DNA from: an uncultured Clostridia bacterium
GTDB taxonomy: Bacteria > Bacillota > Clostridia > Saccharofermentanales > DTU023
Assembly: GCA_937922005.1 (NCBI GenBank)
Contig: CAKZWV010000060.1
Span: forward strand, 1-62,763
DNA length: 62,763 bases
Direction: 5' to 3'
Part shown: piece after piece, positions 24,248 through 48,809 of the stretch
Layout: the number at the start of each line of letters is the position of its first letter
Numbering within the stretch: position 1 is the first letter of the stretch
The notes under the pieces: model-generated
What the model saw: only the letters and a program-made list of their open reading frames with translations
Database searches by the model: none
Told to the model about the DNA's origin: nothing
Position numbers and translations under genes: made by a program

Positions 24248-24967
24248 TTATAACCTTCTAATCTGGGCACAGCGGTGGCGTCGATACCAGTCGTCCCATT
24301 GCTCAAAACAGATGACCAGGGAGACATAAGCTAGATCGACATAGAAGTAGAGTTTCTGATTGATGGCAAGCTGTGGATAGCGACTTGGTGGCAAGATCTT
24401 TTCGTTCCATTGCTGGTAAGAAGGTACACGATGCCGGATAATCCATATTAGGAAAAGTAGGTAAAGTACTAGGATGATGCTCTTTCCTGGTAAGGTATGC
24501 CAGAACCAGGCTTTTTCATTCTTTCTCTGTTGGAAGGAAAAACCGGAATCAGGAATAACATTGACCCCCAACGTGCGTATAGACCAGCGTTGTGCTATAG
24601 ACATGAGTGGAATGGCCCCAAAACAAACCAAGAGGAAAAAAGCCGTACAGTAACGTTGGACTCCCATCTTGACTACCAATGAGCCAATAGATTCATCGTT
24701 CATAGAAACATTCGAAAGCGCAATACTGTTGCATGCACCCTCTATCAAGGCAAGAAGGATCAGGCCCATCCAAACCGCACCTTTTGTTCGATTGCTCATC
24801 TTGAGATAGCGCTGAAAGGGTAGGAGTTCTTGCATCAATCTAGCCTGAAGGTCAGGATTCCCGGGAGCGAAATTATGCTTCACAATCTGGCCACATTTGG
24901 GACAGCAGATGTAGGTAACCTCATGGGCGAAGAAGTAATATTGGCAAGCATTATTTTCGCAGATCAT
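24248..24967 (-). CDS. zinc-ribbon (CxxC...CxxC) polytopic membrane protein, paralog B
   Basis: Same architecture as 23174..23902. The N-terminal 55 aa and C-terminal 35 aa are almost identical and the middle is diverged. A strong SD (aaaggagg) is present. Confidence 0.5.
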   Translation of the reverse strand: MICENNACQYYFFAHEVTYICCPKCGQIVKHNFAPGNPDLQARLMQELLPFQRYLKMSNRTKGAVWMGLILLALIEGACNSIALSNVSMNDESIGSLVVKMGVQRYCTAFFLLVCFGAIPLMSIAQRWSIRTLGVNVIPDSGFSFQQRKNEKAWFWHTLPGKSIILVLYLLFLIWIIRHRVPSYQQWNEKILPPSRYPQLAINQKLYFYVDLAYVSLVICFEQWDDWYRRHRCAQIRRL

Positions 24968-29516: not shown

Positions 29517-29770
29517 AGTAGAGTAACCTTCAGGGCGGGGTGTAAGTCCCCACCGGCGGTGTGAGCCCGCAAGCTAGGCCTCCAGGAAGAAAATAGATAG
29601 GTAAATTCTTCTTTTTCCTTTTGGAGTCTGGCCGATCTCTAGGACCAAGAGAGCCGACAGTGACAGTCTGGATGAAAGAAGGAAACTTATGGATGGCCTG
29701 TGTTCATCCCATGTCCCCTTGCCCGCCTGGTGTCCCCTGTCTGTTGCTCGACCAACGAGGGGCTTTTTTT
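29517..29770 (+). promoter_or_regulatory. FMN riboswitch (RFN element) with intrinsic-terminator expression platform
   Basis: 'AGGGCGGGGTGTAAGTCCCCACCGGCGGT...GCCGACAGTGACAGTCTGGATGAAAGAAGG' matches the RFN consensus. A GC hairpin plus TTTTTTT at ~29735-29770 precedes ribD. Confidence 0.85.
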
Positions 29771-31879: not shown

Positions 31880-33193
31880 ATGGATAAAGAGATGATTGGT
31901 CAAGGCGCAACTGAGACCCAAGCCCAGATTCACGAGATTGAACAGGCCTTGGAAGACTTGCGTGCGGGGAAAATGATCCTCGTGACGGACGATCCCAAGC
32001 GGGAAAATGAGGGCGATCTGATTTGTGCGGCCGCATATGCGACCCCGGAAAATATCAACTTCATGGCGACGGAAGCTAAAGGACTGATTTGCTGTCCCTT
32101 GAGTCGGGAGTGGGCGGAGAAACTAGACCTCCAGCAGATGTGTGAGAATAATACAGATAACCATTCTACGGCCTTTACTGTGAGCATTGACCACCAGGAT
32201 ACATCGACGGGGATTTCTGCCTACGAAAGGTCTTATACCATTATGAAAATGGTTGAGCCTGGAGTAAAACCGGAAGATTTCCGCCGTCCAGGCCATGTCT
32301 TTCCCCTCCAAGCCCGAGATGGTGGGATCTTTGTCCGCAGTGGCCACACGGAGGCGACCGTAACCTTCTTGAGACTAGCCGGTCTTGATGAGGTTGGGGT
32401 TTGTTGCGAAGTTATGGCCCCATCCGGCCATATGATGCGGCGGGATGGTTTGCGCTACCTGGCTAAGACGTACAATCTCACCATGACGAGCATTGAGGCT
32501 CTCAAGACCTACTTAGAGCACCAGCCTCCGGTCTATCAGCCTCATATTATGAAGCGGGAGACGGAAGCTACTTTCCCCTGCCGCTATGGGGAAAACTTTA
32601 AGATTTACGGCTATGTCAATCAGAAGACCGGGGCCCAGCATGTGGCCCTGACCCTCGGTGAGTGGGAGCCCGATGAGCCAGTCCTTGTTCGCATTCACTC
32701 GGAGTGTCTGACTGGCGATGCCCTGGGTTCAGCTCGTTGTGACTGCGGCGACCAGTATGATCTTGCTATGAAGGCCATTGCTAGAGAGGGCAAAGGGGCC
32801 CTGATTTACCTGCGTCAGGAGGGGCGGGGAATCGGCCTGATCAATAAACTTAAGGCCTACCACCTCCAAGATGAAGGAATGGATACGGTGGAAGCTAATA
32901 TGGCTTTGGGCTTTCCAGCTGACGCCCGGGATTATTCGGAGGGAGCAGAGATCCTTTTGGACCTTGGTATCCATAAACTCCGCCTTTTGACCAATAATCC
33001 TGACAAGGTTCACAAAATTCGCCATTTTGGTCTGGAAGTCGTCGAGCGGGTCTCCATTGAGCCTGACCACAAGGAGACGAATGAGTTTTATCTGGCTACC
33101 AAGCGCAGGAAGATGGGACACGACCTGGTCAAAACGACTAGCGATGTACACCCGCCGGAGATGAACACGGCTAAGGATGAGGAAAATCTATAA
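31880..33193 (+). CDS. ribBA: bifunctional 3,4-dihydroxy-2-butanone-4-phosphate synthase / GTP cyclohydrolase II
   Basis: The DHBP synthase region has 'RENEGDL', and the GCHII region has '[15 protein letters not shown]' zinc cysteines. Start set at the ATG preceded by 'gaaggag'; the ORF-track N-terminal extension overlaps ribE. Confidence 0.85.
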
Positions 33194-33204
33194 GGAGAGA
33201 ATTT

Positions 33205-33678
33205 ATGCATATCATTGAAGGTAAGTACCTAGCTAAGGAAGCAAAATTTGCCATTGTGGCTGCCCGTTTTAATGATTTTATAGTCAGTCGCCTCGTTGAT
33301 GGGGCCTTAGATGCCCTGGATCGGCATGATGTTGCCAGCGACCATATTACCCTGGTAAAAGTTCCAGGAGCCTTTGAAATTCCGATGGTAGCGAAGAAAC
33401 TGGCGGAATCGGGAAAATTTGCAGCTGTTATATGCCTAGGAGCTGTAATTCGGGGGGCAACTTCCCACTATGATCTTGTCTGCAATGAAGTGGCCAAGGG
33501 TGTGGCTCAGATCGGCCTGCAGACTGGAATCCCCGTCCTTTTTGGGGTTGTCACAAGCGATACCATTGAGCAGGCAATCGAGCGAGCTGGCACCAAGGCT
33601 GGGAATAAAGGCTATGATGCAGCTATGGCAGCTCTTGAGCTGGTGAATGTGGTAGAGGGAATCGACCAACTTAGTTAG
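33205..33678 (+). CDS. ribH: 6,7-dimethyl-8-ribityllumazine synthase
   Basis: 157 aa with a '[12 protein letters not shown]...GAFEIP' lumazine synthase signature. Confidence 0.9.
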
Positions 33679-33740
33679 GCCTCGGGGAAGAGGGAAAAAA
33701 GGCTTTTATTGGGGGACAATGGATCGCAGAAGGAGTTGAG

Positions 33741-34670
33741 ATGATTAATATTACCATCCGTCAGTTGGAGGTTTTTGTGGAAGTCGTGGAGCAGATGAAT
33801 TATTCTGCGGCAAGTGAGAACCTCTTTTTGAGCCAATCTACGGTTAGTAAGCACATCGAGACTCTGGAAAATGTTCTTCAGATGATTCTCATTGATCGGG
33901 ATGATAAGAAAAATATTAGCATTACACCGGATGGACAACGTCTCTATCACTATGCAAAGGATATCGTTTCCCAGCTAAAGGAACTGGAGCAAAACCTCAG
34001 TAAGGATCAAAAAAAACAGATTCTCTTGGGGACTTCCAGCCTGCCTTCGCAGTTTATCTTGCCTAGCATTTTGTCGAAATTCCATGAAAAGGCCCCCGAG
34101 TATACTTTTGTCATCAAGGACAGCGATAGTGCAGGTGTCCACCAAATGCTCCTGCGCAATCTCATCGACGTTGGTTTTGTGGGCTCCAGGATTAAGCATC
34201 AGAGCCTTCGTTATCGGCCGATTGCTCAAGACCGCCTTTTCTTGGCTACCCCAACTTCTCTGAAGTTTATTGAAGCTAAGGACAAGGGCCTCCAGGGTGG
34301 GGACCTCTTGAGCAATCCCCTGATTTTGCGGGAGGAGGGCTCGGGCACGAGGAAGATGTTTGAAAAATATCTTCACCAGCATAAGATCAGCCTCACCAAT
34401 CTCAAGGTCTTTGCCTATGCGGACAACATTGAGAATATTAAGGAGATGGTCCAGCTTGGTTTAGGGGTCTCCCCCATCTCCAGCCTTACCGTGCAGAAGG
34501 AGCTGGAGCAAGGGACCCTGATGGCTTTTCCCATGGGAGAACCGGGCATTCAAAGAAACATTTATGTCGCCTGGAGGGCCGACACCATGGAACGACGCAA
34601 GGCGGAGGGTACGGCAGATGATTTTGTTACTTTCATGCATTTTGTGACCGGGCAAAAATGGCAATTTTAG
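33741..34670 (+). CDS. LysR family transcriptional regulator
   Basis: N-terminal HTH 'IRQLEVFVEVVEQMNYSAASENLFLSQSTVSKHIETLE' plus a substrate-binding domain. Confidence 0.85.
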   Translation: MINITIRQLEVFVEVVEQMNYSAASENLFLSQSTVSKHIETLENVLQMILIDRDDKKNISITPDGQRLYHYAKDIVSQLKELEQNLSKDQKKQILLGTSSLPSQFILPSILSKFHEKAPEYTFVIKDSDSAGVHQMLLRNLIDVGFVGSRIKHQSLRYRPIAQDRLFLATPTSLKFIEAKDKGLQGGDLLSNPLILREEGSGTRKMFEKYLHQHKISLTNLKVFAYADNIENIKEMVQLGLGVSPISSLTVQKELEQGTLMAFPMGEPGIQRNIYVAWRADTMERRKAEGTADDFVTFMHFVTGQKWQF

Positions 34671-34773
34671 GCAAGTATCATACCAGGGCCAACACCTTGA
34701 CGGATATAGTAACGAATATAGCAAGGTTGTTTGCCACCAATCATAATTAGGGCTATCGGAACGGGAGTACACC

Positions 34774-35610
34774 ATGGAAGAAAAGAAAGAAAGTAAGGTC
34801 CAACATTTTATTGGCATTGATATTGGGTCTACCTCAGCCAAAGTGGTTGTGTTAGGAACCGATGGTCAGATTGAGCAAACCTTTTTACAGCCCACAGGTT
34901 GGAGCAGTGTGGACACGGCTGAGGATTTGAAACGGCAAATGGAAGAAAAAGGGGTCGATTTTACTAGCTGTAAGAGCGTGGCCACGGGCTATGGGAGGGC
35001 AGCGGTTCCCTATGTCGATAAGACTGTAACGGAGATTACCTGCCACGCCCAGGGAGCTACCCGTTTGTACGAGAAGGATACGCTCATGATCATCGATATT
35101 GGCGGTCAAGATACGAAAATCATCAAGATCAAAGATGGGATGGTCGATGATTTTATGATGAATGATAAGTGTTCGGCTGGTACAGGGCGTTTCCTGGAGG
35201 TCATGGCTAATGTCTTGGGTATGAAGCCTGGGACTATGATCGAAATGGCCCGGGAGGGTGCTGCTTCGGGAACGACTATTAGTTCCATGTGCACTGTCTT
35301 TGCAGAATCCGAGGTCATCAGCCTGATTGGCAAGGGTGAATCCAAGGAAAACATTGCTTTTGGGATCATTGATTCCATCGTGAGTAAAGTAGCATCTCAA
35401 GCCAAGCGTATGCTTAGTTCTGGGGCAGGAAGTGGAGCTTATGCCGGGCAAGTTTGTCTGACAGGGGGCCTGTGCGATGCACCCTATATCATTGAGCTTC
35501 TAGGGGAAAAACTGGGCACGGAGGTGGTTACTAATCCCCTCGGCCGCTTTGCAGGTGCTTTAGGGGCGGCTGTCCAAGCAGAAAGATTAGCTAAAAGAGA
35601 AGAAGCCTAA
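34774..35610 (+). CDS. CoA-substrate-specific enzyme activase (BadF/BadG/BcrA/BcrD/HgdC ATPase family)
   Basis: 'IGIDIGSTSAKVVVL' acetate/sugar kinase-fold start and '...CSAGTGRFLE', typical of HgdC-like [4Fe-4S] ATP-dependent activators. Confidence 0.8.
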   Translation: MEEKKESKVQHFIGIDIGSTSAKVVVLGTDGQIEQTFLQPTGWSSVDTAEDLKRQMEEKGVDFTSCKSVATGYGRAAVPYVDKTVTEITCHAQGATRLYEKDTLMIIDIGGQDTKIIKIKDGMVDDFMMNDKCSAGTGRFLEVMANVLGMKPGTMIEMAREGAASGTTISSMCTVFAESEVISLIGKGESKENIAFGIIDSIVSKVASQAKRMLSSGAGSGAYAGQVCLTGGLCDAPYIIELLGEKLGTEVVTNPLGRFAGALGAAVQAERLAKREEA

Positions 35611-35626
35611 GGCTTGTCACTTAGTG

Positions 35627-35665
35627 CATGGTCTTTATGCATGGTCTTAGTGTATGGTCTTAGTG
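35627..35665. repeat. 3 x 13-bp tandem repeat (GCATGGTCTTTAT / GCATGGTCTTAGT / GTATGGTCTTAGT)
   Basis: Seen directly in the intergenic region, followed by small hairpins (AAAGCC..GGCTTT; CTTGAG..CTCAAG). Confidence 0.6.
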
Positions 35666-35764
35666 CCAAAGCCCTATAAAGGCTTTGTCGAAAAGTAGCA
35701 TAGGAGCCTTAAACCTTTGCTGCTTGAGAGGCTCAAGGCCTCAAGATAGGGATCGACTTGACTT

Positions 35765-37138
35765 ATGATCTACTTAGATAATGCTGCTACGAGCCTTGTT
35801 CGTCCTCCGGAGGTGGGAGAGGCCATTGTGGCCGCCCTTACTCAGGCTGGTAATTCAGGAAGGGGGACTGGGGACGCCAGCAATGCGACGGCTTATATGA
35901 TGTATCAGCTCCGGGCCAACCTGGCATCCTTTTTCGGTCTAGGGGTTCGGCAAGCTGCCCATGTTATTTTTACTAAAAATGCGACGGAAGCCCTTAACCT
36001 TGCTATTTTGTCGCTCTTACCGACTTACTTAGCCAGCAAGGCCAGGGATCAGGGAGAAGTTCAATCGGGAAAGACAGCAGATGCCTCTTTGAGGAATGTG
36101 GCAGTGCCTCCTACGGCTTTGGATCCCCTTCCCAGATCCCTGCCTCCCCTCCCCGAATCCCTGCTTTCTAGGCCGCCCCATATCATCGTAGCCGATTGGA
36201 ACCATAACTCGGTTCTCCGGCCCCTCTACCGCCTGGAAGACATGGGCCTAGTCAAGCTTGATATTTGGCGGTCGGGTGTTCAAGCAGGCCTGCCGGGCCA
36301 GGGACTTTTAGACCTAGGTGACCTGGATCGTCTATATCAGCCGGAAACCCAAGCCTTGGTGGTCTCTCATGCCTCCAATTTGACTGGGAATGCTCTCGAT
36401 CTGAGAGCCCTAGGGACATGGACTAAGGACCGTAAGCTGCTCTTTTTGGTAGATGCGGCCCAATCGGCAGGTCATCTACCCATCGATATGGAAGCGATGG
36501 GAATTGACCTGTTGGCCCTAACGGGCCACAAGGCCCTCCTGGGTCCGCAGGGAACCGGAGCCCTTTTGGTCCATTTACCTCACATCTTGGAGAAAAACCC
36601 AGCTTTTGCCCTGGACAAGTGTGTCCCCCTTATGGCAGGTGGGGCAGGAATCCTCTCTTTTGACCGAGATCAGCCTCCTATGGCGCCTGAACGCTTTGAA
36701 GCAGGGACCCTCAATGGCCACTCCTTGGCGGGTTGGTTGGCAGCGATGGAGTATTTGCAAAAGGAAGGGCTAGACAAGATCCACCAAGGAGAAATGATTC
36801 TTTTACGAAAACTCTATGAAGGCCTGGTTGGGCTCCCGGACCTGCGAATTTATGGGGATTTTTGCAAGGAAGTCTGGGAAAGCGGGCAAAGAACCCCGGT
36901 GTTGAGCTTTAATCTGGGAAAGACGTCCTCCAATTTTGTAGCTGAGGCCCTAGCTGAGCGCTTTGAGATCGCCTGTCGGGCAGGGGCCCACTGTGCCCCA
37001 CTCATGCATGAGGCTTTGGGAACAACGGACCAGGGAGCGGTGCGTTTTAGTTTGAATGCCTTTACGACCCTGGAGGAGGTGGAGGCAGGAGTGGGCGCTG
37101 TTAAGACCCTGGTGGAGGAAGGATTCGCCTCAAAATAG
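35765..37138 (+). CDS. aminotransferase class V-fold PLP enzyme (cysteine desulfurase family-like) with proline-rich insertion
   Basis: 'MIYLDNAATS', 'VIFTKNATEALN' and 'LALTGHKALLGPQGTGALLV', with the PLP lysine in HK. A ~50-aa P/L/S-rich insertion follows the first third. Confidence 0.75.
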   Translation: MIYLDNAATSLVRPPEVGEAIVAALTQAGNSGRGTGDASNATAYMMYQLRANLASFFGLGVRQAAHVIFTKNATEALNLAILSLLPTYLASKARDQGEVQSGKTADASLRNVAVPPTALDPLPRSLPPLPESLLSRPPHIIVADWNHNSVLRPLYRLEDMGLVKLDIWRSGVQAGLPGQGLLDLGDLDRLYQPETQALVVSHASNLTGNALDLRALGTWTKDRKLLFLVDAAQSAGHLPIDMEAMGIDLLALTGHKALLGPQGTGALLVHLPHILEKNPAFALDKCVPLMAGGAGILSFDRDQPPMAPERFEAGTLNGHSLAGWLAAMEYLQKEGLDKIHQGEMILLRKLYEGLVGLPDLRIYGDFCKEVWESGQRTPVLSFNLGKTSSNFVAEALAERFEIACRAGAHCAPLMHEALGTTDQGAVRFSLNAFTTLEEVEAGVGAVKTLVEEGFASK

Positions 37139-37284
37139 GCAAAAGCATTGCCTTATGGTATACTAGCGATGGGCTATCAGGAAAGTATTGTCTGCATGTA
37201 TCGCCGATGATAGTAAGTTTATAAGACTTGCCATTTGCTGCGATATACGTTTTGAATTGTCATATTTGTGTTAAAGGAGACCAA

Positions 37285-38571
37285 ATGCCAACGACAGATT
37301 ATCAAACCATGTGGAAAGATCTCGGGATGAATCTCGAGATGCACGATAACCTCTGTGCTGCCCTACCTATGGGTATCGAAGCCACCTTCCAAAATGAGAA
37401 AAACCGTCCCGAGGCCATGGGTTATTGGGATATGATCATCGCCCAGGTTCACGGCCTGCGCCCCGCCGAGTTGGTGGAGGAAAAGAAGAAGGGCCGCAAA
37501 GTCTTTGGAACTTTCTGCGTCTATGTGCCTGACGAGCTGATTATTGCTGCAAACGGGATCGTGACCGGTCTCTGCGGCGGGTCTGAGTTCTGGGTTCCTA
37601 GTGGGGAAGAAGTCTTACCGAAGAATACCTGCCCCCTGGTGAAGGCCTCCATCGGAGCACACAGGAGCAAGACTTGCCCCTTCTTTAGCTTGTCTGACAT
37701 CTACATTGGAGAGACCACCTGCGATGCCAAGAAGAAAGCCTATGAAATTTTGGCTGAAGATTCAGATGTATATGTCATGGACCTGCCTCAGATGAAGAGG
37801 GAAAAGGACCATGTCAAGTGGGCTGGTGAGATCGCTGAATTTGCCAAGGTCGTCGAGCGGGTCACTGGAAATAAGATTACCCCGGAAAAACTTAAGGAAG
37901 CGATTAAGATCATTAATAATCGCCGCAAAGCCATGGCAAGAGTCTTTGATGCCAGAAAGAATCCGGATAATGTGCCGATTTCTGGAACGGACTGCCTCTT
38001 AATGACGCAGATTGCTTTCTTTGACGATCCTGAGCGCTGCACCCAGATGTGCAACAAGCTGGCCGATGAGCTCGATGCCCGTAACAAAGAGGGCAACTCC
38101 GTTGCTCCCAATAGTTACAAGCGTCTCATGATCACCGGGACCCCCATGGCCGTGCCCAACTGGAAGGTCCACAGCATCATTGAGCACAATTTACCTGCCG
38201 TTGTGGTGTGCGAGGAGATGTGCACCGGGACCCGCTATGTGGAGAACTTGGTGGATGAGTCCGGGGAGACCCTGGAAGAGATGTATCGTCACCTGGCCGA
38301 TCGCTATCTCAAGAATAATTGTGCCTGCTTCACGCCAAACAAGGCCCGGGTCGAAGATGTCATTCAAAAGGCCAAAGACTACCATGTCGACGGGGTCATT
38401 GACTGCAGCTTGAGCTTCTGCAATCTCTATGAGACTGAGCAGTACGGGATTGGCAGGGCCTTGAAAGAAGCTGGCATCCCCTGCCTGTCGATTACAACGG
38501 ATTATGCAGATTCCGACAGCGAGCAGCTGAAGACCAGAATCGGCGCTTTTGTTGAAATGTTAGACAACTAG
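37285..38571 (+). CDS. 2-hydroxyacyl-CoA dehydratase family protein (HgdB/BcrC/BadD-like; possibly a double-cubane-cluster-type protein)
   Basis: Cys-rich family architecture next to a cognate activase gene. Start set at the ATG after 'aaggag'. Confidence 0.65.
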   Translation: MPTTDYQTMWKDLGMNLEMHDNLCAALPMGIEATFQNEKNRPEAMGYWDMIIAQVHGLRPAELVEEKKKGRKVFGTFCVYVPDELIIAANGIVTGLCGGSEFWVPSGEEVLPKNTCPLVKASIGAHRSKTCPFFSLSDIYIGETTCDAKKKAYEILAEDSDVYVMDLPQMKREKDHVKWAGEIAEFAKVVERVTGNKITPEKLKEAIKIINNRRKAMARVFDARKNPDNVPISGTDCLLMTQIAFFDDPERCTQMCNKLADELDARNKEGNSVAPNSYKRLMITGTPMAVPNWKVHSIIEHNLPAVVVCEEMCTGTRYVENLVDESGETLEEMYRHLADRYLKNNCACFTPNKARVEDVIQKAKDYHVDGVIDCSLSFCNLYETEQYGIGRALKEAGIPCLSITTDYADSDSEQLKTRIGAFVEMLDN

Positions 38572-38617
38572 GTTAAGACCTAGGAAATTAGCGTTCACTC
38601 CCTTCCCCTATTTTGAG

Positions 38618-38676
38618 CAAATACTCCCGACCGCTTGTGCCGCACAGGAGTGCTGGATAGGGGGAGGGAGTATTTG
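38618..38676. repeat. inverted pair of the dispersed 11-mer (CAAATACTCCC ... GGGAGTATTTG) with flanking ATAGGGGGAGGG-like motif
   Basis: Intergenic; the arms are 38618-38628 and 38666-38676. Confidence 0.6.
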
Positions 38677-38774
38677 TTATAGGGTGGCCCAATTTAGGGG
38701 GACGGAGCTACGAATGTAAGCTTCAACTGTGAGAGTTAGGTAGAAGGGTTTAGATTGATTTTAAAGGCTTTATT

Positions 38775-39038
38775 ATGGACAAAGTGATGCCAGTTCGCTA
38801 TTATGTAATCGTGCGTGGGCCAACGGAGGGGATGGCTCTGCACCATTATCTCAAGGAGGCCAATGTGCCCCAAAATATTGCGCCCGCCCCTCGGTTACCA
38901 AATTTTAAGATGCCTTGCGGAATGGCGTTGCGGGTGGAGGAGGCCCATTATGAGGCCCTCCTGGCGGCGCTTCAAGGACATGAAGATGAGTACGTAACGA
39001 TCGTCAAAGTGGGCGACCAAAAGGGAGGATCTGTATGA
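38775..39038 (+). CDS. DUF3343-like small protein (putative S/Se carrier-like)
   Basis: 87 aa; 'VRYYVIVRGPTEGMALHHYLKEANV...KMPCGMALRV' fits the DUF3343 size and pattern. Confidence 0.5.
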   Translation: MDKVMPVRYYVIVRGPTEGMALHHYLKEANVPQNIAPAPRLPNFKMPCGMALRVEEAHYEALLAALQGHEDEYVTIVKVGDQKGGSV

Positions 39039-40108
39039 TTTATTTTACCAGTGACTATTGTGAGTCTTGCCACCCTAAGTTGCTGCAAGCTATAGTGGAT
39101 CTGGGGGATCATCAATATCCGGGGTATGGAAAAGATGAGATTTCTGCCGAAACCCGGACTATGCTCAAGGAACAGTTGGATGCACCGGAGGCGGCCGTTC
39201 ACTTTATGGTCTCGGGAACCCAAAGTAACTTTATCTTGATGGCAGCGGCCTTGCGCCCCCATGAGGGGGTTCTTTGTGTGGAGACTGGTCACCCCAATGT
39301 CCATGAAACGGGGGCCGTTGAAGCGACCGGCCACAAGCTTCTTATTCTCCCACTTAAAGAGGGACCCCAGGATGGAAAGGTCGACCCTGAGTTGGTGGAC
39401 ATTTTCTGTAAGGATCACTTTAACTCCGCTTCCCCAGAACACCAGGTCAAACCGAAGATGATCTATATTTCTAATACTACCGAGTTGGGGACGGTTTACC
39501 ATAAGGCTGAGTTGGAAGCCCTCCGTAAGGTGGCCGATAAGTGGAATCTTTATCTTTTCATGGATGGGGCAAGATTGGGATCGGCTATGAAGGCCGAGAG
39601 TCAAGATTTAACAATGCAAGATTTACCGAAGCTTTGTGATGCCTTTACCATTGGGGGCACCAAGTGCGGTCTAGCCTTTGGGGAAGCCATGGTCATCATG
39701 AATCCGGCGATTCAGCAAGATTTTAGATATATCCAAAAACAAAAGGGAGCCATGCTGGCGAAGGGCTGGTTGATTGCTACTCAATTTAGGGCTGCCTTCC
39801 AGGATGGACTATTTTGGGAACTGGCTGACCATGAAAATAAAATGTCAATGAAGATTGCGGCTGCTTTTGCTAAAGCAGAGTCCGCAGGGGTAAGTTTTGC
39901 CTACCAACCCATTTCTAACCAGCTCTTTATCTGGATTCCTAATGACTTGGATGATTTGCTCAAGAAATCTTTTGTATACGAATATTCTGACTCGCAATTT
40001 GAACCCAATCGCAAGTTTACTCGCTGGGTCACTTCTTTCTGGACCAAGGAAGAGAATGTCCATGCCCTGGTGGAGGCCATTGATTCTTACTTAGCCGCCC
40101 GAGCCTAG
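39035..40108 (+). CDS. low-specificity threonine aldolase / beta-eliminating lyase family PLP enzyme
   Basis: 'FTSDY', 'GYGKDE', 'FMVSGTQSNF', 'HPNVHETGA' and 'FMDGARLGSA' follow the threonine aldolase pattern. Confidence 0.75.
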   Translation: MIYFTSDYCESCHPKLLQAIVDLGDHQYPGYGKDEISAETRTMLKEQLDAPEAAVHFMVSGTQSNFILMAAALRPHEGVLCVETGHPNVHETGAVEATGHKLLILPLKEGPQDGKVDPELVDIFCKDHFNSASPEHQVKPKMIYISNTTELGTVYHKAELEALRKVADKWNLYLFMDGARLGSAMKAESQDLTMQDLPKLCDAFTIGGTKCGLAFGEAMVIMNPAIQQDFRYIQKQKGAMLAKGWLIATQFRAAFQDGLFWELADHENKMSMKIAAAFAKAESAGVSFAYQPISNQLFIWIPNDLDDLLKKSFVYEYSDSQFEPNRKFTRWVTSFWTKEENVHALVEAIDSYLAARA

Positions 40109-40203
40109 TGAGCATCCTAGCTGGACCAAGCTAACTTTATTTCAGACCTGATTGATATCGCTGATTTATATTATATCGCTCATTGATATAAGTACGTCCT
40201 CTC

Positions 40204-40257
40204 AAAAAAACCGTCCCCCTTCTATCCTAGTAGCCTAGGTAAGGGGGACGGTTTCTA
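40204..40257. terminator. bidirectional rho-independent terminator
   Basis: AAAAAAACCGTCCCCCTT-loop-AAGGGGGACGGTTTCT: a 12-bp stem with A- and T-tracts on both sides, between convergent genes. Confidence 0.8.
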
Positions 40258-40294
40258 TATTCTTTCCTTGCGATCGGCTTTTGATGATTGGCCC

Positions 40295-41566
40295 TTAGTT
40301 ACCAAAGTTCATGACCAGGTAAGTTCTCCCATCTGTATCGGGGTAAAGGGCGACGCCCATTCTGGTTAAACTAGGGTTAAACATGTTCGCATAGTGGGCG
40401 GCTGAATTGTAGTAATCCATAAAGACTTCTTCAGCCGTTTGTGATCCTGTCGAAAAATATCCGGTATTTTCTGCCATAGCACAATTCCATCCGTAGCGGT
40501 CTGCAATCCATTGCAAGGCAAATACTCCTTCGTGGGTATGTCCCGTACTGTCTCCAGTTGACCGATAGCTTACACCGACTTGGGGTGCCCGGATATTAGC
40601 AATACTCTGCAAGGTAGCATCATTAGTCATAAGAGCTAGACCCAGCTGTTGCCGTACAGCATTGATGTTAGCCATGATGGTCTGAGCTGCCTGGGCATAG
40701 TCGGTGATGGCCCCAGTGCGATCAATGGCTTTTAAGAAGTCTTGGCCATTCTCAGATCCCTCTTGGGCTGTTCCTGTACCGGTGCCCTGGCCTTGACCGG
40801 CAGGAGCGGTCCCTTGGTTGTTCGCCCTGAAGACTGTGTAATGTTGCTTTTGACCATCTGCATCGATATAATCTACAACTTCCGAATGATAGCCTTGGTT
40901 TGCTGCTTCTGCAGGGGAGAGTTGGTTGCCTTCCGCATCTACAGGGGGAAGGGTCAAAATCTCGTTATTCATAGCCGGTTTTTCTAGGAAGCTCTGGTTA
41001 TTGTTCGTCAACTGGCCTTGTTGGGATGTATCGATAACAGCGTTAGGTGCTGTATTGATGGGATTGGTCGTCGTAGGCGGAGCTTGGGCTTGGACTTGGC
41101 TAGGCTTTTGTGCCTCAGAGATCTGAAGATCAGCAGTTTCTGCAGTCGTTGCCTTTGTCTCAGTAGCAGGCGTTGCCTTCGTTTCTTCCTCTTCTTCGGT
41201 TTCTGTCTCGGTTGATTCGGTACTCCCACTCATCAGTTGAGCTATCAGTTCACTTTCCTTACTTTCATTGGCCTTCCGGAAGGCCTCAGCCTCTGCTTCT
41301 TTAATGTATTTGCTGCGCTCTTCTTCCATTTTATCCAGATCGTCTTGGGGTGGCTGGGTAGGTGCCGTTGTCTGAACTTCGATTTTATACTTCTTATCTG
41401 GCTTAGGGGTTAATACGGATTCTTCCTTCTTTTTACATCCGCTTAGGGTGAGAAGGGTTGTACCCGCCAACACCAGGGTCAAAGCGCTCCGCATCATGGC
41501 CTTGCCTGGATGCGCCAGCAGCTTGTCCTGGATAGAAGTATTCGCTTTATCTATATCTTGACTCAT
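40295..41566 (-). CDS. CAP/SCP-domain lipoprotein with long T/E/Q-rich low-complexity region
   Basis: Lipobox LTLSGC. The C-terminal CAP domain carries 'HTHEGVFALQWIADRYGWNCAMAEN' and 'HYANMFNPSLTRMGVALY'. Confidence 0.65.
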   Translation of the reverse strand: MSQDIDKANTSIQDKLLAHPGKAMMRSALTLVLAGTTLLTLSGCKKKEESVLTPKPDKKYKIEVQTTAPTQPPQDDLDKMEEERSKYIKEAEAEAFRKANESKESELIAQLMSGSTESTETETEEEEETKATPATETKATTAETADLQISEAQKPSQVQAQAPPTTTNPINTAPNAVIDTSQQGQLTNNNQSFLEKPAMNNEILTLPPVDAEGNQLSPAEAANQGYHSEVVDYIDADGQKQHYTVFRANNQGTAPAGQGQGTGTGTAQEGSENGQDFLKAIDRTGAITDYAQAAQTIMANINAVRQQLGLALMTNDATLQSIANIRAPQVGVSYRSTGDSTGHTHEGVFALQWIADRYGWNCAMAENTGYFSTGSQTAEEVFMDYYNSAAHYANMFNPSLTRMGVALYPDTDGRTYLVMNFGN

Positions 41567-43568: not shown

Positions 43569-45011
43569 TTAAAAGAGGTCCCGGCTGAAATGAAAGGCCA
43601 TATCGGCAAAGCGGAGCCGACAGCGGTCAGGGAGGAGGTAGAGCTCATGGCGGTTCAGGCGCTTCCCGTCGAGCAAGGTCCCATTGACCGAGCCTAAATC
43701 CTGAATAAAATAATCCTCGCCGAATTTGCTGATTCTCGCATGTCGCCGGCCCACGGCCTTCGTGGGTAGGACAAAGTCACAGAGGGCAGCATCCCGACCA
43801 ATGATAAATTCGGACGTGAGGATAAAGGCCCGCAAACCTTCCTTTTCTCGTCCGGACCCAGGTAGGCCTTCAGAGATGACGGCAAAGGAATTGCTTTCTA
43901 CGTGATCTGGCAGGGGCAGGGTCTTTTCTTTGGACTGGTTCTGGAGTATTTGTCTCTGAAGCTGACGACGAGCTTGCCTTTGTCCCCAAACACCCCAGAG
44001 GCCGGATAAGCCTTTTTCATTTCCGGCATCCATGAGACCTGAGCTGTTTTCCTCTCCTTCAAAGTTATAGTCAGCAGCTGCTTCGGCAACCTTGTTGGCC
44101 AAGGCTTGGTCTATTGGTGCCTTGCCCCCGAATAAATATTTAACTTTCTGCCAAAGACTGTCCGGCTGCCTTTCGGGTTGAGCCCAAATACCTCCGGGAT
44201 GGTCTTCCAGGTCAACCATGGCTTCTTGGACTTTTTGGCGCTCTAAGAGCCATTTCTTCTTTTTTTCAGGACTAGCTAAGTTCTGCACCCGGAGCTGGGC
44301 TTCCAAACGCTCTCGCCTTTCGATTTGGTCGGGGTGGGGGAGGTGGGTCTTGGCTAGTTCCACCTCTGAACGCAATTTACTAAAGTTTTTCTCTTGAAAA
44401 TAGTTCTGCAAGACCATGCGAAGACGGTCACCTAAAAAGTAGCGGTCGCAGATTTCGTCGATGAGGTTTCTGTCCGTGGTGGAAGAAACGATATCGCTGG
44501 CATAATCCTTCTCATCGGGAGCCCCGTCTTCCTTCTCTTGCAGACCACTTTCCGTATCGTTAGCCATTCCGTCGTTAGCCTTTTTATCGTTATCCCTTCT
44601 ATCGTTATCCTTCGTTACTTGCTTGATGGAGGTAAAGGTCTTTTCAGGAAGGGGAAGGGAGAGGATGGCCACATCGGAGAATTCGTCATAGGGGTCATAA
44701 AGATAGATCCAAGAAGCTCGCATCAAATCCAGATCGAGGTTGAGCATTTGATCTTGGTTGGCCAGGCAAGCGTCGGAAATAGCACAGAGTCGATCTAGGC
44801 CAAGGAGAGGCGAGGCTGGCAGGGGATCCTCAGAGAGGGGACAGAGGTCTTGAGGAACTTGAATTTGAAAGAAAGCTTGCGGCAGTTTTGTTTTATCTTC
44901 CTTTTCTTCCCAATAGACGAGGGGGAGAGTGTGACGAGGACGCTCTTGGAGGAGGACATGGAGTTGCCATGGGTCCACTTGGGCCGTTCCTTTAGATTGA
45001 AATACCAACAT
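43569..45011 (-). CDS. FHA-domain protein (C-terminal FHA) associated with Tad locus
   Basis: C-terminal 'FIIGRDAALCDFVLPTKAVGRRHARISKFGEDYFIQDLGSVNGTLLDGKRL', an FHA fold. The N-terminal 380 aa are uncharacterised. Confidence 0.65.
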   Translation of the reverse strand: MLVFQSKGTAQVDPWQLHVLLQERPRHTLPLVYWEEKEDKTKLPQAFFQIQVPQDLCPLSEDPLPASPLLGLDRLCAISDACLANQDQMLNLDLDLMRASWIYLYDPYDEFSDVAILSLPLPEKTFTSIKQVTKDNDRRDNDKKANDGMANDTESGLQEKEDGAPDEKDYASDIVSSTTDRNLIDEICDRYFLGDRLRMVLQNYFQEKNFSKLRSEVELAKTHLPHPDQIERRERLEAQLRVQNLASPEKKKKWLLERQKVQEAMVDLEDHPGGIWAQPERQPDSLWQKVKYLFGGKAPIDQALANKVAEAAADYNFEGEENSSGLMDAGNEKGLSGLWGVWGQRQARRQLQRQILQNQSKEKTLPLPDHVESNSFAVISEGLPGSGREKEGLRAFILTSEFIIGRDAALCDFVLPTKAVGRRHARISKFGEDYFIQDLGSVNGTLLDGKRLNRHELYLLPDRCRLRFADMAFHFSRDLF

Positions 45012-45112
45012 AGGATAAGGAGGAGAAAGCCTGACGCAGCCGCCTGGTTTTCTCCTCGAGCCTCCTTTCTTAGGGAGTATTTGCCAAGCCTTCGGAGAGA
45101 CTGGACCTCGGA

Positions 45113-45508
45113 TTAATTGTAGCTAATGCTGTCAATGACTTTCTTATCAAAGACCTTTTTGAAGAGGTCTGTTGAAAATTTGACGATTTGTGACTTGAAT
45201 GTCAAGGCAAGGGCTAGGAGAATAGCGATAATAATGACGATTTCTAAAGTTCCCATTCCCTGCTTATCCTTGGCCTTATCCCAAGCACAATGCGCTAGGG
45301 TGTCGGCCTTGACATAGAGCTGATTGAGTCTGTCTTGCAGCCTAGCAGTCAAGGAGAGTGGGTGAGGAGAAGCACCGAGGTGCCTAGAGGGACTTGGTTC
45401 ACCGAGCGTGGGCCCTCCGCTATCAGGGGCCGAGACCGGCCGAAAATGCTGGAATGTTTGTTGTATCATGGATCTATCCTTTCTTTGTTCGTGCCACAAG
45501 AAGCGCAT
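45113..45508 (-). CDS. Flp/Fap-type pilin-like protein; ORF has anomalously long N-terminal region
   Basis: 'KQG|MGTLEIVIIIAILLALALTF' gives a G/xxxxE class-III signal-like motif and a hydrophobic stretch. No in-frame start codon fits a normal ~20-aa leader. Confidence 0.45.
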   Translation of the reverse strand: MRFLWHEQRKDRSMIQQTFQHFRPVSAPDSGGPTLGEPSPSRHLGASPHPLSLTARLQDRLNQLYVKADTLAHCAWDKAKDKQGMGTLEIVIIIAILLALALTFKSQIVKFSTDLFKKVFDKKVIDSISYN

Positions 45509-45739
45509 CTGTATGTGCCATATGGGTACGTATATTTATGCCATCAAAGGTGCATTTTTTCGATCTCATCTGCTGTACAGACTACATAGGCCTCACCTCC
45601 CTTCTTGTCTTTCATCATTTTTTCTGATATTTGATCTTTTCTTCAAATATTCCCTATGTTAATTGGAAATGCTCAAAAATTATCTGTATTATTCCAGAAT
45701 ACTGCAGAATGCTCCCAGGCCCCCGCTTCCACCTTTTTC

Positions 45740-47596
45740 CTAGCCGCCAATAAAGCCTGCCAGGGCGGGCAAAACAGAACTGAGAATGACGAGGAGTAAG
45801 TCTAGACCCAGGGGAATGACGAGGAGGATATTGCGGTTTTCCAGGTCTTTGCGCATGGCATTTTTATAGACGTCCCAGCAGGCAACAGCCTCAAGTTGCA
45901 GGATATCTAGGAGTTCTTTGCCCCCGTCTCGATCGTAGCGGGCGATCAATTGCAGGGCGCTAGAAATCTCATTAGAGGGAACTTTGTGACTGAGACCTTG
46001 GAGGGCATCCGCTGCCGTAACCCCAGTTGCAATTTCCCTTTGTAAATGACGGAAGTCTTGGCGAATGAGGGATTCTTTATTGCGGCTCGGAAAGAAAGTC
46101 TTCCTTGTGGCAGTGCTCAAAGTCCTTCCATATGGAGCGTAACTTATAGATGAACCTAGAGCACCAGAGGAAGCATATCCCCCAGGCGAAGCCAAGTCAG
46201 CAGAAGCTGCAAGACCACCCATATTCGCTAAAGCCTGCTGACTACCACTCCCTAGGCTAGACATCGGGCCGCCTGTCTGCCCATGGTAAAAATCTAGGTC
46301 ACCTTCCCCTAAGAAGCTTTGATAAGCCAGGTCCAGGGCCTTGTTCAGGCTAAGGCCACTGCTTAAAAGAATGTGACATAAATTAAGGAAGGAGGGGTAT
46401 TCCAACCGGTATTCCTGTTGTATCTTTTTTTCTAGATGTAAGAGTTCGGCGTCTTGGAGGAGGCTCGGTGCTATAGTGAATAAAATGCCAAGACAGGGAT
46501 TTAGATCCGCCAGCACCAAGAGAAAAATGGCAAAAATCGCACCTCCAGCACACAGACAAAGTTTTTGCTGGATGTAGTAAGGAAAGGGGTCAGGTGTTCC
46601 TTTACTAGCCTCCTCCAGCCAAGAGGAATCGAGGCCTCCTAGCTTTTTTTGTTTTCCTTCCTTGCCCTTGTTTCGAATTAGATTGACCCGCCAGGATCGG
46701 CGAACGGCCCCAGCTAACTTGAATCCCAAACTTGAAGGCAAAAAACTAATGATATGGTCGCTTAATTGTGCAATCCAGGGGGGGACTGGGGCTTTCACCT
46801 CCATCTCCTTGAATTTGATGGTACGTTCTTTATAGGGATCCGCCCCGGCGATAATGACAAGAGCAATGGATCCCGAGAGAATGGCCCCTAAAAAAAGCAC
46901 CTGCATCATGGCTGGACCCCAGGGGGCTTCCTTTAGGGGGACTAAATAGGTCGGTGATCCTTGATTGAGGAAAAACATGATGACAAAAGGCATGAAAATT
47001 AGGATCAAGGCCTCTGTATTTTTCGCACTTTGCTCTGCCACAATCTCATCCTGCGTCGTCAACTCTTCGCTCAGAGCCCGATGGCTGTGGCGGATATAAT
47101 TGTCCATCCGCCCGCCAAAACGGTGCAAAAATGGAAGAATCGAGAGAAAGGACTTAGCTTTGGGACAGCGAAAGCGCTGGTTAAAAAGGGAAAGGGCCTC
47201 CCCCAAGCCTAGTTTCGACATGAGGGCCCCTTTGAGGAGGGAGAGGGCCTTAGCTAGGCTGCTATGGTGGCCCGTTTGCTGACTCACTACCCGGTAGGCA
47301 CTGGTGAGACTTGTTTCCAAACTTTGCCCTGCAGCGATCCGACTACTCAAATACTCTAGCAACACCAAAAATTGCTTGACCTTCCTATGTTTTCCTCTGC
47401 CCTGAAAAAAACTTTGGTAGGCCCAGGTAAGGGGAATCGTAGCCACGGCACCGCAAAGCCAGTCCCGAGTGGAAGTGAGAGGCCAAACACTAAGACCAAC
47501 AAGAATCGTAAGGATGGCCGCAAGTAAAAAGGGAAGAAGCTCCCACATCCGCTGGCAAAAGGCCCGGATTTTTACTTTTCCTAACTTTGTTTTCAT
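45740..47596 (-). CDS. fused TadB/TadC-like (T2SS F-domain) pilus assembly membrane protein
   Basis: 618 aa with two GspF/TadC-like membrane domains; it overlaps tadA by 4 nt. Confidence 0.65.
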   Translation of the reverse strand: MKTKLGKVKIRAFCQRMWELLPFLLAAILTILVGLSVWPLTSTRDWLCGAVATIPLTWAYQSFFQGRGKHRKVKQFLVLLEYLSSRIAAGQSLETSLTSAYRVVSQQTGHHSSLAKALSLLKGALMSKLGLGEALSLFNQRFRCPKAKSFLSILPFLHRFGGRMDNYIRHSHRALSEELTTQDEIVAEQSAKNTEALILIFMPFVIMFFLNQGSPTYLVPLKEAPWGPAMMQVLFLGAILSGSIALVIIAGADPYKERTIKFKEMEVKAPVPPWIAQLSDHIISFLPSSLGFKLAGAVRRSWRVNLIRNKGKEGKQKKLGGLDSSWLEEASKGTPDPFPYYIQQKLCLCAGGAIFAIFLLVLADLNPCLGILFTIAPSLLQDAELLHLEKKIQQEYRLEYPSFLNLCHILLSSGLSLNKALDLAYQSFLGEGDLDFYHGQTGGPMSSLGSGSQQALANMGGLAASADLASPGGYASSGALGSSISYAPYGRTLSTATRKTFFPSRNKESLIRQDFRHLQREIATGVTAADALQGLSHKVPSNEISSALQLIARYDRDGGKELLDILQLEAVACWDVYKNAMRKDLENRNILLVIPLGLDLLLVILSSVLPALAGFIGG

Positions 47597-48726
47597 GTCA
47601 CATCCCTCACATAGACTGGCTCCAGGATAAAGCGCCCATCTTCATAGTCTTTTAAGCGTTGGACTTCTTGGACGATTCTTTTCCCATTGGGGAGGCGGAC
47701 GAGATGGATAATGAGATCGATAGCGGAGACGATGAGGCGGCGGATGGCCTCCCAGGGGAGGGCCGAATTCATCAAAATCATGAGACAAATTCGGTCCAGC
47801 ATCTCCACGGGACTATTTCCGTGTCCTGTGGACATGGACCCAGGGTGACCCGTGCTCATGGCCTGGACCATATCAAAGGCCTCCCCGCCCCGCACCTCCC
47901 CAACAATGATCCTGTCAGGGCGGAGGCGCAAAGACGAGCGAATGAGATCGCCCAAAGTCACTTCACCCGTCCCATCAGGGCCTGGTGGCCTAGCCTCCAA
48001 GCGGAGGAGGTTGTCCACCCCCTGAAGCTCCAGCTCCAAAGAGTCCTCGATCGTGATAATCCGCTCATTTTTGGGAATACAAGCGGATAGAGCATTTAAA
48101 AAGGTCGTTTTGCCTGTACCGGTCCCTCCTGAGCAAAAAATACTCTTGCGCCCGACAACTGCTTCCTTTAAGGTTTCGGCAAGCTCATCGGGAAGGGTCC
48201 CAGCAGAAACAAGATTTTCAAGGCTCGGCTTGATCCCAGTAAAGCGTCGAATGCTTAGGGCAGGCCCATAGGGGGCAGCTGGCGGCAAAACTGCCTGGAT
48301 CCGGGACCCATCCTGGAGACGCATCCCCGCTATGGGCTTTTGTTCATTGATGATTTTATTGGCCTGGCCAAAGAGCCGACTAATGAAGTCTGTCAAATCC
48401 TCCTGGTCATGAAAGGAAATATTCACTCTCCTCAAGAGCCCAGCCTGTTCCACGAAGACATCCTGGGGGCCATTGACCATGATTTCGGTAATTTCCGGTC
48501 GAGAAAAGAACTCTTGTAGGATATCCAGGCCCCGCATCTTGTTGTAGACCTGACTACAGAGATCAGCCTTTTGACTGAGGGTCAGTTGCTCCTGGCTAGG
48601 CATGGCGCTGACTATCCGTCCAATCAATCGGCGGAGTTCCTGGTCTGGCAAACTTTCGATGGCAATATTTTGGCTGACCAATAGCTCTAGAACCTGCTGA
48701 CAGAGCTTCTCATTTTGCATTTTCAT
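47593..48726 (-). CDS. TadA/CpaF-family type II/IV secretion ATPase
   Basis: Walker A 'CSGGTGTGKTTFLNAL', Walker B 'RIIVGEVRGGEA' and a His-box. Confidence 0.85.
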   Translation of the reverse strand: MKMQNEKLCQQVLELLVSQNIAIESLPDQELRRLIGRIVSAMPSQEQLTLSQKADLCSQVYNKMRGLDILQEFFSRPEITEIMVNGPQDVFVEQAGLLRRVNISFHDQEDLTDFISRLFGQANKIINEQKPIAGMRLQDGSRIQAVLPPAAPYGPALSIRRFTGIKPSLENLVSAGTLPDELAETLKEAVVGRKSIFCSGGTGTGKTTFLNALSACIPKNERIITIEDSLELELQGVDNLLRLEARPPGPDGTGEVTLGDLIRSSLRLRPDRIIVGEVRGGEAFDMVQAMSTGHPGSMSTGHGNSPVEMLDRICLMILMNSALPWEAIRRLIVSAIDLIIHLVRLPNGKRIVQEVQRLKDYEDGRFILEPVYVRDVT

Positions 48727-48809
48727 CGTACAAATACTCCCTCAAATCTTTTCTTCGATAGTTATCTAGAATTCTGCCCCCCAATATGCCCACCTCTTTT
48801 CCTCTAGAC

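Follow-up and report, generated by a model that had tools for sequence, protein, structure and literature searches.

A conserved double-cubane cluster protein module with a putative selenocysteine lyase and a DUF3343 carrier, and its possible role in selenium metabolism

The DNA analysed here, referred to below as the window, is a stretch of 62,763 nucleotides from an uncultured Clostridia bacterium (contig CAKZWV010000060.1). Between positions 33741 and 40108 it carries a cluster of six genes on the forward strand. Four of these encode a double-cubane cluster protein (DCCP), its ATP-dependent activase, a class-V aminotransferase-fold pyridoxal phosphate (PLP) enzyme and a small DUF3343 protein, and together they are a conserved four-gene module, which occurs in numerous gut anaerobes and across phyla, irrespective of the order of its genes. 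The best reading of this module is that it drives an ATP-dependent, reductive release of selenide from carrier-bound selenium, to supply the selenophosphate synthetase SelD. We give this reading a probability of roughly 0.45.

All six genes had been listed in a preliminary description of this DNA, and a listing of the open reading frames (ORFs), together with scans against Pfam and NCBIfam, recovers every one of them at the same coordinates and in the same families. The first gene encodes a LysR-family regulator (33741–34670; PF00126 (HTH_1) and PF03466 (LysR_substrate)). It lies 103 bp upstream of, and in the same direction as, the gene for a BcrAD/BadFG-type activase, also called an archerase or DCCP reductase (34774–35610; PF01869, 164.7 bits; TIGR00241, 209 bits against a cutoff of 125). 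There follow the class-V PLP enzyme (35765–37138; PF00266, 216 bits), the HGD-D family protein that is the DCCP (37285–38571; PF06050, 397 bits), the DUF3343 or Se_S_carrier protein (38775–39038; PF11823, 35.5 bits against a cutoff of 25) and a PLP enzyme of the beta-eliminating lyase/threonine aldolase family (39035–40108; PF01212, 103 bits). The longest ORF for the DCCP opens at a TTG at 37228, and the start is placed at the ATG at 37285, which has AAAGGAG just before it.

The identity of the DCCP is supported by several comparisons. It scores 476.2 bits against NF040772, the NCBIfam equivalog model for DCCP, whose cutoff is 350. HadC comes next, at 117.8 bits (cutoff 700), and the protein is far under the cutoffs of the other families (HadB 34/750, BzdN 88/454 and BcrC 69/421 bits). 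The structures 6ENO and 7YYL in the PDB match it from end to end (E 1e-130, residues 5–426), while HadC and BzdN match at just E 1e-23 to 1e-20. Cysteines 78, 97, 116, 146, 313, 346 and 379 each align to a cysteine of the seven-cysteine motif of 6ENO, which comprises six cluster ligands and Cys94 of DCCP_Ch, the protein from Carboxydothermus hydrogenoformans (PMC7317905). The spacing of these cysteines is X18-X18-X29-X166-X32-X32. The published regular expression for the motif (CX19CX18-19CX29C...) gave no match. A missing cysteine was ruled out as the cause, because a gapless HMMER alignment shows a first gap of X18 in 6ENO too, and the mismatch is thus a matter of notation.

The predicted fold agrees with this assignment. 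An AlphaFold (AF2) model generated from 58 homologues has a predicted local distance difference test score of 91, and superimposes on 6ENO with a TM score of 0.95–0.97 and a root-mean-square deviation of 1.2 Å over 422 columns, at 48% identity. The N-terminal helices of the model (6–12, 17–36, 45–53 and 58–68) correspond to the four-helix extension of class-I proteins. In DCCP_Ch this extension shuts the coenzyme A (CoA) funnel and leaves two narrow channels, and it is the feature that sets class I apart from the YjiM-type class II (PMC7317905). When the family hidden Markov model (HMM) was run against all window ORFs of at least 40 residues, only one PF06050-type gene was found. On the strength of the family model, the match to 6ENO, the seven cysteines and the fit of the model, the protein is a class-I DCCP with a predicted [8Fe-9S] cluster. 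The preliminary description had proposed that this lone HGD-D protein is a DCCP with its own reductase, not a subunit of the HgdA/HgdB or BcrB/BcrC type, and had singled out the double-cubane cysteine pattern for checking; the proposal stands, and the pattern is complete in the alignment to 6ENO. The same comparisons rule out a subunit of a heteromeric dehydratase or benzoyl-CoA reductase.

The activase scores higher against HgdC (PDB 1HUX, 166.7 bits) than against the DCCP reductase, DCCP-R (7YYL_E, 137.8 bits), and retains both cysteine contexts of the bridging [4Fe-4S] cluster (NDKC.AGTGRF and S.CTVFAESE). DCCPs take their electrons solely from the ATPase partner, dithionite and Ti(III) citrate being unable to reduce the cluster, and in vitro they reduce acetylene, hydrazine and azide (PMC9351452; PMC7317905). 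Their physiological role and substrate have been unknown since their discovery in 2018, and were still described as such in PMC9351452.

The linkage of the four genes was analysed by a single scan of 185,579 species-representative genomes, a set from which the window's own species is absent. The scan gave 80 loci, these being the best matches to the window DCCP, with DCCPs 60–68% identical to it. Neighbouring genes were counted using HMMs made from unbiased clusters of all ORFs in the 80 loci. Taxonomically, these loci are spread over Lachnospiraceae, Oscillospiraceae, Coriobacteriia/Eggerthellales, Lancefieldella, Bacteroidales, Dehalococcoidales and a metagenome-assembled genome of Methanocorpusculum. 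Within 3 kb of the DCCP gene, DUF3343 is present in 75 of the 80 loci, usually 0–50 bp downstream, and the activase and the class-V enzyme are each present in 63; the loci that have no activase or no class-V enzyme are mostly on truncated contigs. The gene order is variable. In 17 loci it is lyase-DCCP-carrier-activase, in others it is the activase-lyase-DCCP-carrier order of the window, and there are further arrangements besides, but the pair formed by DCCP and DUF3343 is nearly invariant despite the shuffling.

Within 10 kb of the DCCP gene, most of the recurrent neighbours belong to selenium metabolism, namely yedF (27/80), selD (17/80), selB (10/80), selA (7/80) and yedE (7/80). Those with no connection to selenium are subunits of energy-coupling factor (ECF) transporters, a pyrophosphatase and truA, which are unrelated housekeeping genes found in small subsets of the loci. 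No catabolic enzyme set recurs near the module in the 80 loci, and no transporter beyond YedE and the housekeeping ones. The preliminary description had expected a conserved linkage between the DCCP, the class-V PLP enzyme and DUF3343, and this holds across phyla. It had also named two outcomes that would speak against its proposal, namely a dehydratase subunit of heteromeric type and a lack of conserved linkage. Neither was found, because the DCCP is not of the heteromeric type and the linkage is conserved.

The DCCPs of the module differ from the proteins whose structures have been determined. The window DCCP has a median identity of about 64% to the 80 module DCCPs, about 47% to 40 DCCPs of the DCCP_Ch type and about 35% to a group of second paralogues. 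Residues were compared in an alignment of 134 DCCPs, which included the 80 module sequences, the 40 of DCCP_Ch type and 13 paralogues. Cys24 (window positions 37354–37356) is present in all 80 module DCCPs, in none of the 40 DCCP_Ch-type proteins and in none of the 13 paralogues. Cys309 is found in 94% of the module DCCPs, compared to 28% of the DCCP_Ch group. In the AF2 model, Cys24 sits in helix 17–36 of the channel-forming N-terminal extension. The gene neighbourhood differs as well: in the four DCCP_Ch-type loci examined (Carboxydothermus, Desulfosporosinus, Thermincola and Carboxydocella), the DCCP is followed by the activase only. The sequence comparison thus places the module DCCPs in a subclade separate from the structurally characterised clade.

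It may be added that some genomes carry further copies of the module components. The second, divergent DCCP paralogue, which is about 35% identical and has neither Cys348 nor Cys24, occurs in 13 of the 80 genomes, no more than 10 kb from the module (loci L011, L014, L020, L021, L024, L037, L045, L047, L056, L058, L066, L070 and L073). A second, canonical DUF3343 is found upstream of the activase in nine loci.

The DUF3343 protein also has a characteristic cysteine. The window protein contains the conserved internal cysteine of the family (PCGMAL, in the P.PR...CG motif). In addition, 74 of 79 module DUF3343 homologues end with the sequence R(D/N)(R/K)(Y/F)C-COOH, for example RDRYC or RNRFC. 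This C-terminal cysteine tail is a feature of the DCCP-adjacent subfamily that is defined in the present analysis, and no NCBIfam model matches the tailed subfamily. The window protein, which ends in KGGSV, and that of a sister species (locus L085), which ends in EGGSV, both lack the tail and are among the five exceptions. An invariant Cys24 in the DCCP, together with a C-terminal cysteine in the carrier, suggests a thiol relay between these residues, leading through the narrow channel to the active site.

The class-V enzyme is assigned by sequence to the EF2568/SclA lineage (selenocysteine lyase/cysteine desulfurase type II), and is a putative selenocysteine (Sec) lyase. The two best-matching families are TIGR01977, the EF2568 family (321.7 bits, cutoff 377), and the SclA model NF040779 (257.8 bits, cutoff 525), and the window enzyme is under the cutoff in both cases. 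Orthologues in the same position of the module pass TIGR01977 (443 and 402 bits) and fail the SclA model. At least 80% of 65 homologues share the PLP lysine (TGHK) and the catalytic cysteine (RAGAHCAP), and both motifs also align to PDB 5B7S. The position that matches His124 of SufS and Asp146 of human Sec lyase is an asparagine (HN motif) throughout the module family. SclA is reported to have His100 at this specificity position, and the Enterococcus faecalis enzyme has a preference for selenocysteine, cysteine being a competitive inhibitor (bioRxiv 10.1101/2020.02.07.939272).

The shortfall of the window enzyme against TIGR01977 coincides with lineage-specific insertions. A proline-rich insertion of about 50 residues (residues 82–130; 36008–36154), with a 21-bp tandem duplication inside it (36124–36164), is absent from the homologues and from 5B7S. 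In the sister species L085 the insertion is longer and has a different sequence (the gene call is 488 residues), and it raises the ratio of nonsynonymous to synonymous substitution rates (dN/dS) of this gene to 0.15.

The surroundings of the module in the window also point to selenium. The LysR regulator scores 268.9 bits against the equivalog model NF040786 (LysR_Sec_metab), a modest margin over the cutoff of 250. A second selenium-type operon is located 11 kb upstream, on the opposite strand (21140–22972). It consists of yedE, encoding a putative selenium transporter (21845–22972; TIGR04112 seleno_YedE, 464.9 bits, cutoff 200), a gene for a TusA/SirA-like sulfurtransferase-fold protein with a CPEP motif (21600–21809; PF01206, 67.6 bits), and a gene for a probable divergent DUF3343-like protein of 106 residues (21140–21460). 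The last of these matches the core PvPR..SCG motif of the module DUF3343 HMM, and scores 19.6 bits against PF11823 (E 6e-4, below the cutoff of 25). The same order of yedE, SirA-like and DUF3343 genes has been reported for Slackia heliotrinireducens (PMC5322559).

The adjacency of a selenium-type LysR is not a general feature of the module, because the LysR homologues that occur near it in about 10 of the 80 loci form a different LysR cluster; one that was tested scored 125.9 bits on NF040786, against the cutoff of 250. A LysR box in the spacer between LysR and the activase was considered and dropped, the sole candidate dyad being in an 11-nt segment that is missing from the sister species. 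The preliminary description had suggested a substrate containing sulfur or selenium. The evidence narrows this towards selenium, in view of the LysR_Sec_metab match, the orthologues in the EF2568 family, the selD, yedF, selA, selB and yedE genes near the module in other genomes, and the yedE and tusA-like genes of the window.

The last gene of the cluster has a different history. The ATG of the beta-eliminating lyase overlaps the stop codon of DUF3343 by 4 nt, and the preliminary description had included this threonine-aldolase-type gene in the pathway. The protein meets only the broad family PF01212, with 42.7 bits against LtaE (cutoff 312) and 45.9 bits against GntG (cutoff 230), and is closest, with about 50% identity, to generic proteins of the ‘threonine aldolase family’. 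None of the 80 related loci contains the gene. In the sister species L085 the arrangement is that of the window, beta-eliminating lyase included. Two other relatives (L086 and L087) have the gene next to RlmL, Tad-pilus and metK genes, just as it is in the window, and with no selenium module. This synteny suggests an insertion of the module between ribH and a resident beta-eliminating lyase gene. By its distribution, the beta-eliminating lyase is a co-transcribed passenger and a resident neighbour, not a conserved member of the module, and it was accordingly rejected as a member of the pathway. An amino-acid-derived substrate, which the preliminary description had offered as an alternative to a sulfur or selenium compound, has no support other than selenocysteine as the likely substrate of the class-V lyase.

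Purifying selection acts on all six genes in this lineage. Relative to the sister locus L085, dN/dS is 0.018–0.037 for LysR (the lowest, at 0.018), the activase, the DCCP and the beta-eliminating lyase, 0.088 for DUF3343 and 0.146 for the class-V lyase, with dS ranging from 0.24 to 1.3 across the six genes. The missing tail of the carrier, the insertion carried by the lyase and the length of the spacers raised the question of gene decay, which was rejected because of these dN/dS values of 0.02–0.15.

The conserved partners of the DCCP are a Sec-lyase-type enzyme, a cysteine carrier and, more loosely, selD, yedF and yedE, and the most economical function for the module therefore lies inside selenium metabolism. 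Of 970 DCCPs, 955 occur in assemblies that contain SelD (bioRxiv 10.1101/2022.07.06.499078). We hypothesise that the lyase strips selenium from free L-selenocysteine in the form of an enzyme-bound perselenide, a point at which selenium imported via YedE/TusA-type proteins may enter too, and that the selenium is then handed to a cysteine of DUF3343. At the expense of MgATP, the ATPase would drive electrons of low potential into the [8Fe-9S] cluster of the DCCP. The DCCP would in turn reduce the carrier-bound zero-valent selenium, or other oxidised small selenium species able to enter the narrow channels, to selenide (HSe-), on which SelD acts. In this scheme we infer the direction of selenium flow, the chemical nature of the substrate and the need for an ATP-driven reduction. 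By our own calculation from standard potentials, the Se(0)/HSe- couple lies at about -0.72 V (pH 7, 1 M), or about -0.55 V at micromolar selenide, which is below ferredoxin; a search of the literature found no citable value for this potential. So low a potential would rationalise the use of an energised electron, but it is suggestive only, since protein perselenides are reduced more easily than bulk Se(0).

A number of points weigh against the release of selenide as the function. Thiols reduce protein-bound perselenides readily in vitro, and it is therefore not obvious that an ATP-driven step is needed. The selenium substrate is putative for every DCCP. Pairs of the DCCP_Ch type co-occur with SelD but have no lyase or carrier neighbours, and the link to selenium may therefore bypass these neighbours. 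In the window itself, the selenium specificity of the lyase is putative only, since the enzyme is under the TIGR01977 cutoff and has Asn instead of His or Asp; the DUF3343 protein is without the C-terminal cysteine that the relay idea needs; and selD, selA and selB were not found in the 62,763 nt using HMMs built from the SelD, SelA and SelB proteins of the loci. Finally, as the best matches to the window DCCP, the 80 loci sample one subclade only.

Three other explanations have to be weighed. The lyase and DUF3343 could be maturation factors that place selenium in the cluster of the DCCP, for example as a selenide bridge ([8Fe-8S-Se]), the DCCP then reducing some other small molecule. A Sec-lyase-type enzyme and a selenium or sulfur carrier are encoded close to the DCCP whatever the gene order, as would be expected of a dedicated maturation system, and NifS and NifU provide an analogy in the case of nitrogenase. 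A selenium cofactor was also raised as a formal possibility by Haft, from the 955/970 co-occurrence with SelD (bioRxiv 10.1101/2022.07.06.499078). However, DCCP_Ch built its [8Fe-9S] cluster in E. coli without lyase or carrier partners (PMC7317905), and the genes of its clade do not have these neighbours. The known routes to selenium cofactors use selenophosphate and a dedicated maturase, and no such maturase is linked to the module, and the absence of any recurrent substrate-specific metabolic genes near the module fits a role in selenium metabolism better than an unrelated catalytic function. A maturation role is for these reasons unlikely, and the specific claim that DCCPs of the subclade hold a selenium-containing double-cubane cofactor (e.g. 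[8Fe-8S-Se]), installed by the Sec-lyase-type enzyme and DUF3343, seems a little more doubtful still. If it were true, a fourth use of selenium in biology, this time in a nitrogenase-like cluster, would join selenocysteine, selenouridine and the molybdenum-hydroxylase cofactor.

In a second alternative, sulfur takes the place of selenium: the class-V enzyme would be a dedicated cysteine desulfurase of the NifS kind, with DUF3343 as the carrier of persulfide. These would build or repair the sulfur-rich [8Fe-9S] cluster, or the DCCP would reduce a persulfide or polysulfide, and the selenium genes nearby would reflect a shared anaerobic lifestyle and nothing more. This would be in keeping with the SufS-type catalytic cysteine and PLP lysine of the class-V enzyme, with the position of the window enzyme under the family cutoffs, and with the presence of DUF3343 in organisms that lack SelD, no selenium-specific branch of the family having been found (PMC5322559). 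It is made improbable by the recurrent neighbours, which are selD, selA, selB, yedF and yedE and not suf, isc or nif, by the window LysR, which passes a selenium equivalog model, and by the orthologous lyases, which belong to the EF2568/SclA family; the member of that family that has been characterised favours selenocysteine, with cysteine acting as a competitive inhibitor. We consider it very improbable that the DCCP is a catabolic reductase to which the two PLP enzymes feed an organic or amino-acid-derived small molecule for energy metabolism. DCCPs do reduce acetylene, hydrazine and azide in vitro, and the beta-eliminating lyase gene, with its 4-nt overlap with DUF3343, is conserved in the sister species, but that gene occurs in 0/80 loci and is syntenic without the module in relatives, and no transporter or catabolic set recurs other than YedE and the housekeeping genes seen in small groups of loci.

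The region contains some further features. The spacer between the DCCP and DUF3343 genes carries a nested inverted repeat, or hairpin (38597–38676, forward strand). The inverted motif at 38618–38676 that was noted in the preliminary description is real. Its arms are at 38618–38635 and 38659–38676 and hold an inverted pair of the 11-mer CAAATACTCCC, and they are enclosed by a second inverted pair at 38597–38611 and 38657–38671. The fold of the spacer has a z score of -4.2. The stems are identical between the window and L085 (9578–9760), the loop and the downstream spacer differ, and L085 has a deletion of 48 nt in this spacer relative to the window; the flanking genes have dS of about 0.7. The comparison of the two sequences suggests that the hairpin is a constrained structure. 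It matches no Rfam family. Because DUF3343 elsewhere mostly follows the DCCP after 0–50 bp, the spacer in the window is a lineage-specific addition.

The dispersal of the motif that the preliminary description had noted is also borne out. The 11-mer CAAATACTCCC (reverse complement GGGAGTATTTG) occurs at 13 sites in the window, compared to 0.08 expected by chance, or about one per 4.8 kb. The sites are at 3828, 6391, 9544, 10509, 30648, 30753, 31644, 38618, 38666, 45073, 48731, 53973 and 60302; they fall both within and between genes, and include the inverted pairs 30648/30753 and 38618/38666. The possibility that the 11-mer is part of a longer dispersed element was rejected, as only the core is common and the flanks are unrelated. 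The pattern of the outer arm, CTCCCTTCCCCTATT, is not over-represented in the window (6 matches, 3.9 expected). Both the density of sites and their pairing in inverted orientation are reminiscent of DNA uptake sequences or some other short genome-wide signal.

On the 5' side, 62 bp separate the LysR gene from the end of a ribD-ribE-ribBA-ribH operon, which has a flavin mononucleotide (FMN) riboswitch upstream of it (29522–29687; RF00050, 81.7 bits). On the 3' side there is a CAP-domain gene on the opposite strand. The window encodes two large CAP/SCP-domain proteins (10644–13127 and 40295–41566), and a CAP-domain gene also adjoins the beta-eliminating lyase in the relative L087. A Tad/Flp-type pilus is encoded at 43569–49979. 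The spacer between the activase and the class-V lyase contains a 13-nt tandem repeat, CTTAATGCATGGT, in 3.6 copies (35620–35666; Tandem Repeats Finder score 59). Two tandem paralogues on the reverse strand (23174–23902 and 24248–24967), 59% identical and each with a membrane segment after a zinc-ribbon-like N-terminus, gave no family match. An Rfam scan found nothing inside the cluster, and in the whole window just the FMN riboswitch and one tRNA. Scans of 33000–41000 for promoters and terminators gave terminators not above the shuffled expectation and promoters weakly above it, and no operon boundaries are drawn from them.

The module bears on two questions, namely the physiological substrate of DCCPs and the way in which strict anaerobes deliver reduced selenium to selenophosphate synthetase. 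A link to selenium has been glimpsed before, in the clustering of genes in Slackia (Lin et al., 2015, PMC5322559, in a STRING table only) and in the co-occurrence of DCCP with SelD (Haft, 2022, bioRxiv 10.1101/2022.07.06.499078). The component families are already known. The four-gene unit, its phylum-wide and order-independent conservation and its separation from the characterised DCCP clade are not described in the open-access and bioRxiv literature searched, and nor are the diagnostic Cys24 of the DCCP and the C-terminal cysteine of DUF3343. The main value of these observations is that the question of the DCCP substrate becomes directly testable, with Cys24 and the C-terminal cysteine of the carrier as residues for mutagenesis. 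If the release of selenide for SelD is the correct function, it would be the first natural function for a DCCP, and would supply a step missing from the assimilation of selenium by Clostridia and Coriobacteriia that abound in the gut. The window contributes one further member of the module, from a lineage outside the species-representative set; the carrier here has no tail, the lyase bears an insertion, and a passenger PLP gene is present.

It is useful to compare the module with systems that have been described previously. The heteromeric enzymes HadBC, HgdAB and BcrBC/BzdNO belong to the same PF06050 superfamily as the window DCCP, and use the same kind of ATP-driven activator. Unlike them, the window DCCP is a single-subunit protein, has seven motif cysteines and not three, and has its CoA funnel occluded by the N-terminal helices. 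The SclA protein of E. faecalis (EF2568), which is encoded in a selD/xanthine dehydrogenase locus, shares with the window lyase the class-V family, the catalytic cysteine and PLP lysine, and a context of selenium genes. The window lyase differs from it in being under the TIGR01977 and SclA cutoffs, in having Asn at the His100 site and a 50-residue insertion, and in being linked to a DCCP and not to yqeB, yqeC or xdh.

The SAO (selenocysteine-assisted organometallic) loci described by Haft (bioRxiv 10.1101/2022.07.06.499078) have a DCCP and an activase beside selenium-related genes and a strong co-occurrence with SelD, as is the case here. The annotated ORFs of the window do not suggest a sao-type cassette, although no homology search for sao genes was made. 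In the window the partners are the Sec-lyase-type enzyme and DUF3343; DUF3343, SclA and LysR are not mentioned in that work. The locus of Slackia heliotrinireducens (Shel_25110–25470; STRING table of PMC5322559) contains the same families, namely LysR_Se, an ‘HGD subunit’ (the DCCP), the activase, a Sec-lyase-family protein and DUF3343, and, as in the window, it also has yedE clustered with a SirA-like gene and DUF3343. That study offered no interpretation of the dehydratase and activase genes. The Slackia locus has in addition selD, selA, selB, yedF, a second DCCP paralogue and a second DUF3343, none of which is present in the 62 kb of the window. The closest structural comparison is with the DCCP and DCCP-R of C. 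hydrogenoformans (CHY_0487/0488; 6ENO and 7YYL), which have the same fold, the same register of seven cysteines, the same four-helix extension and an adjacent ASKHA-type ATPase. The window activase scores slightly higher against HgdC than against that DCCP-R. The window DCCP belongs to a different subclade, which has the extra Cys24 and usually Cys309, and its gene, unlike that of C. hydrogenoformans, is linked to those of a Sec-lyase-type enzyme and a DUF3343 protein.

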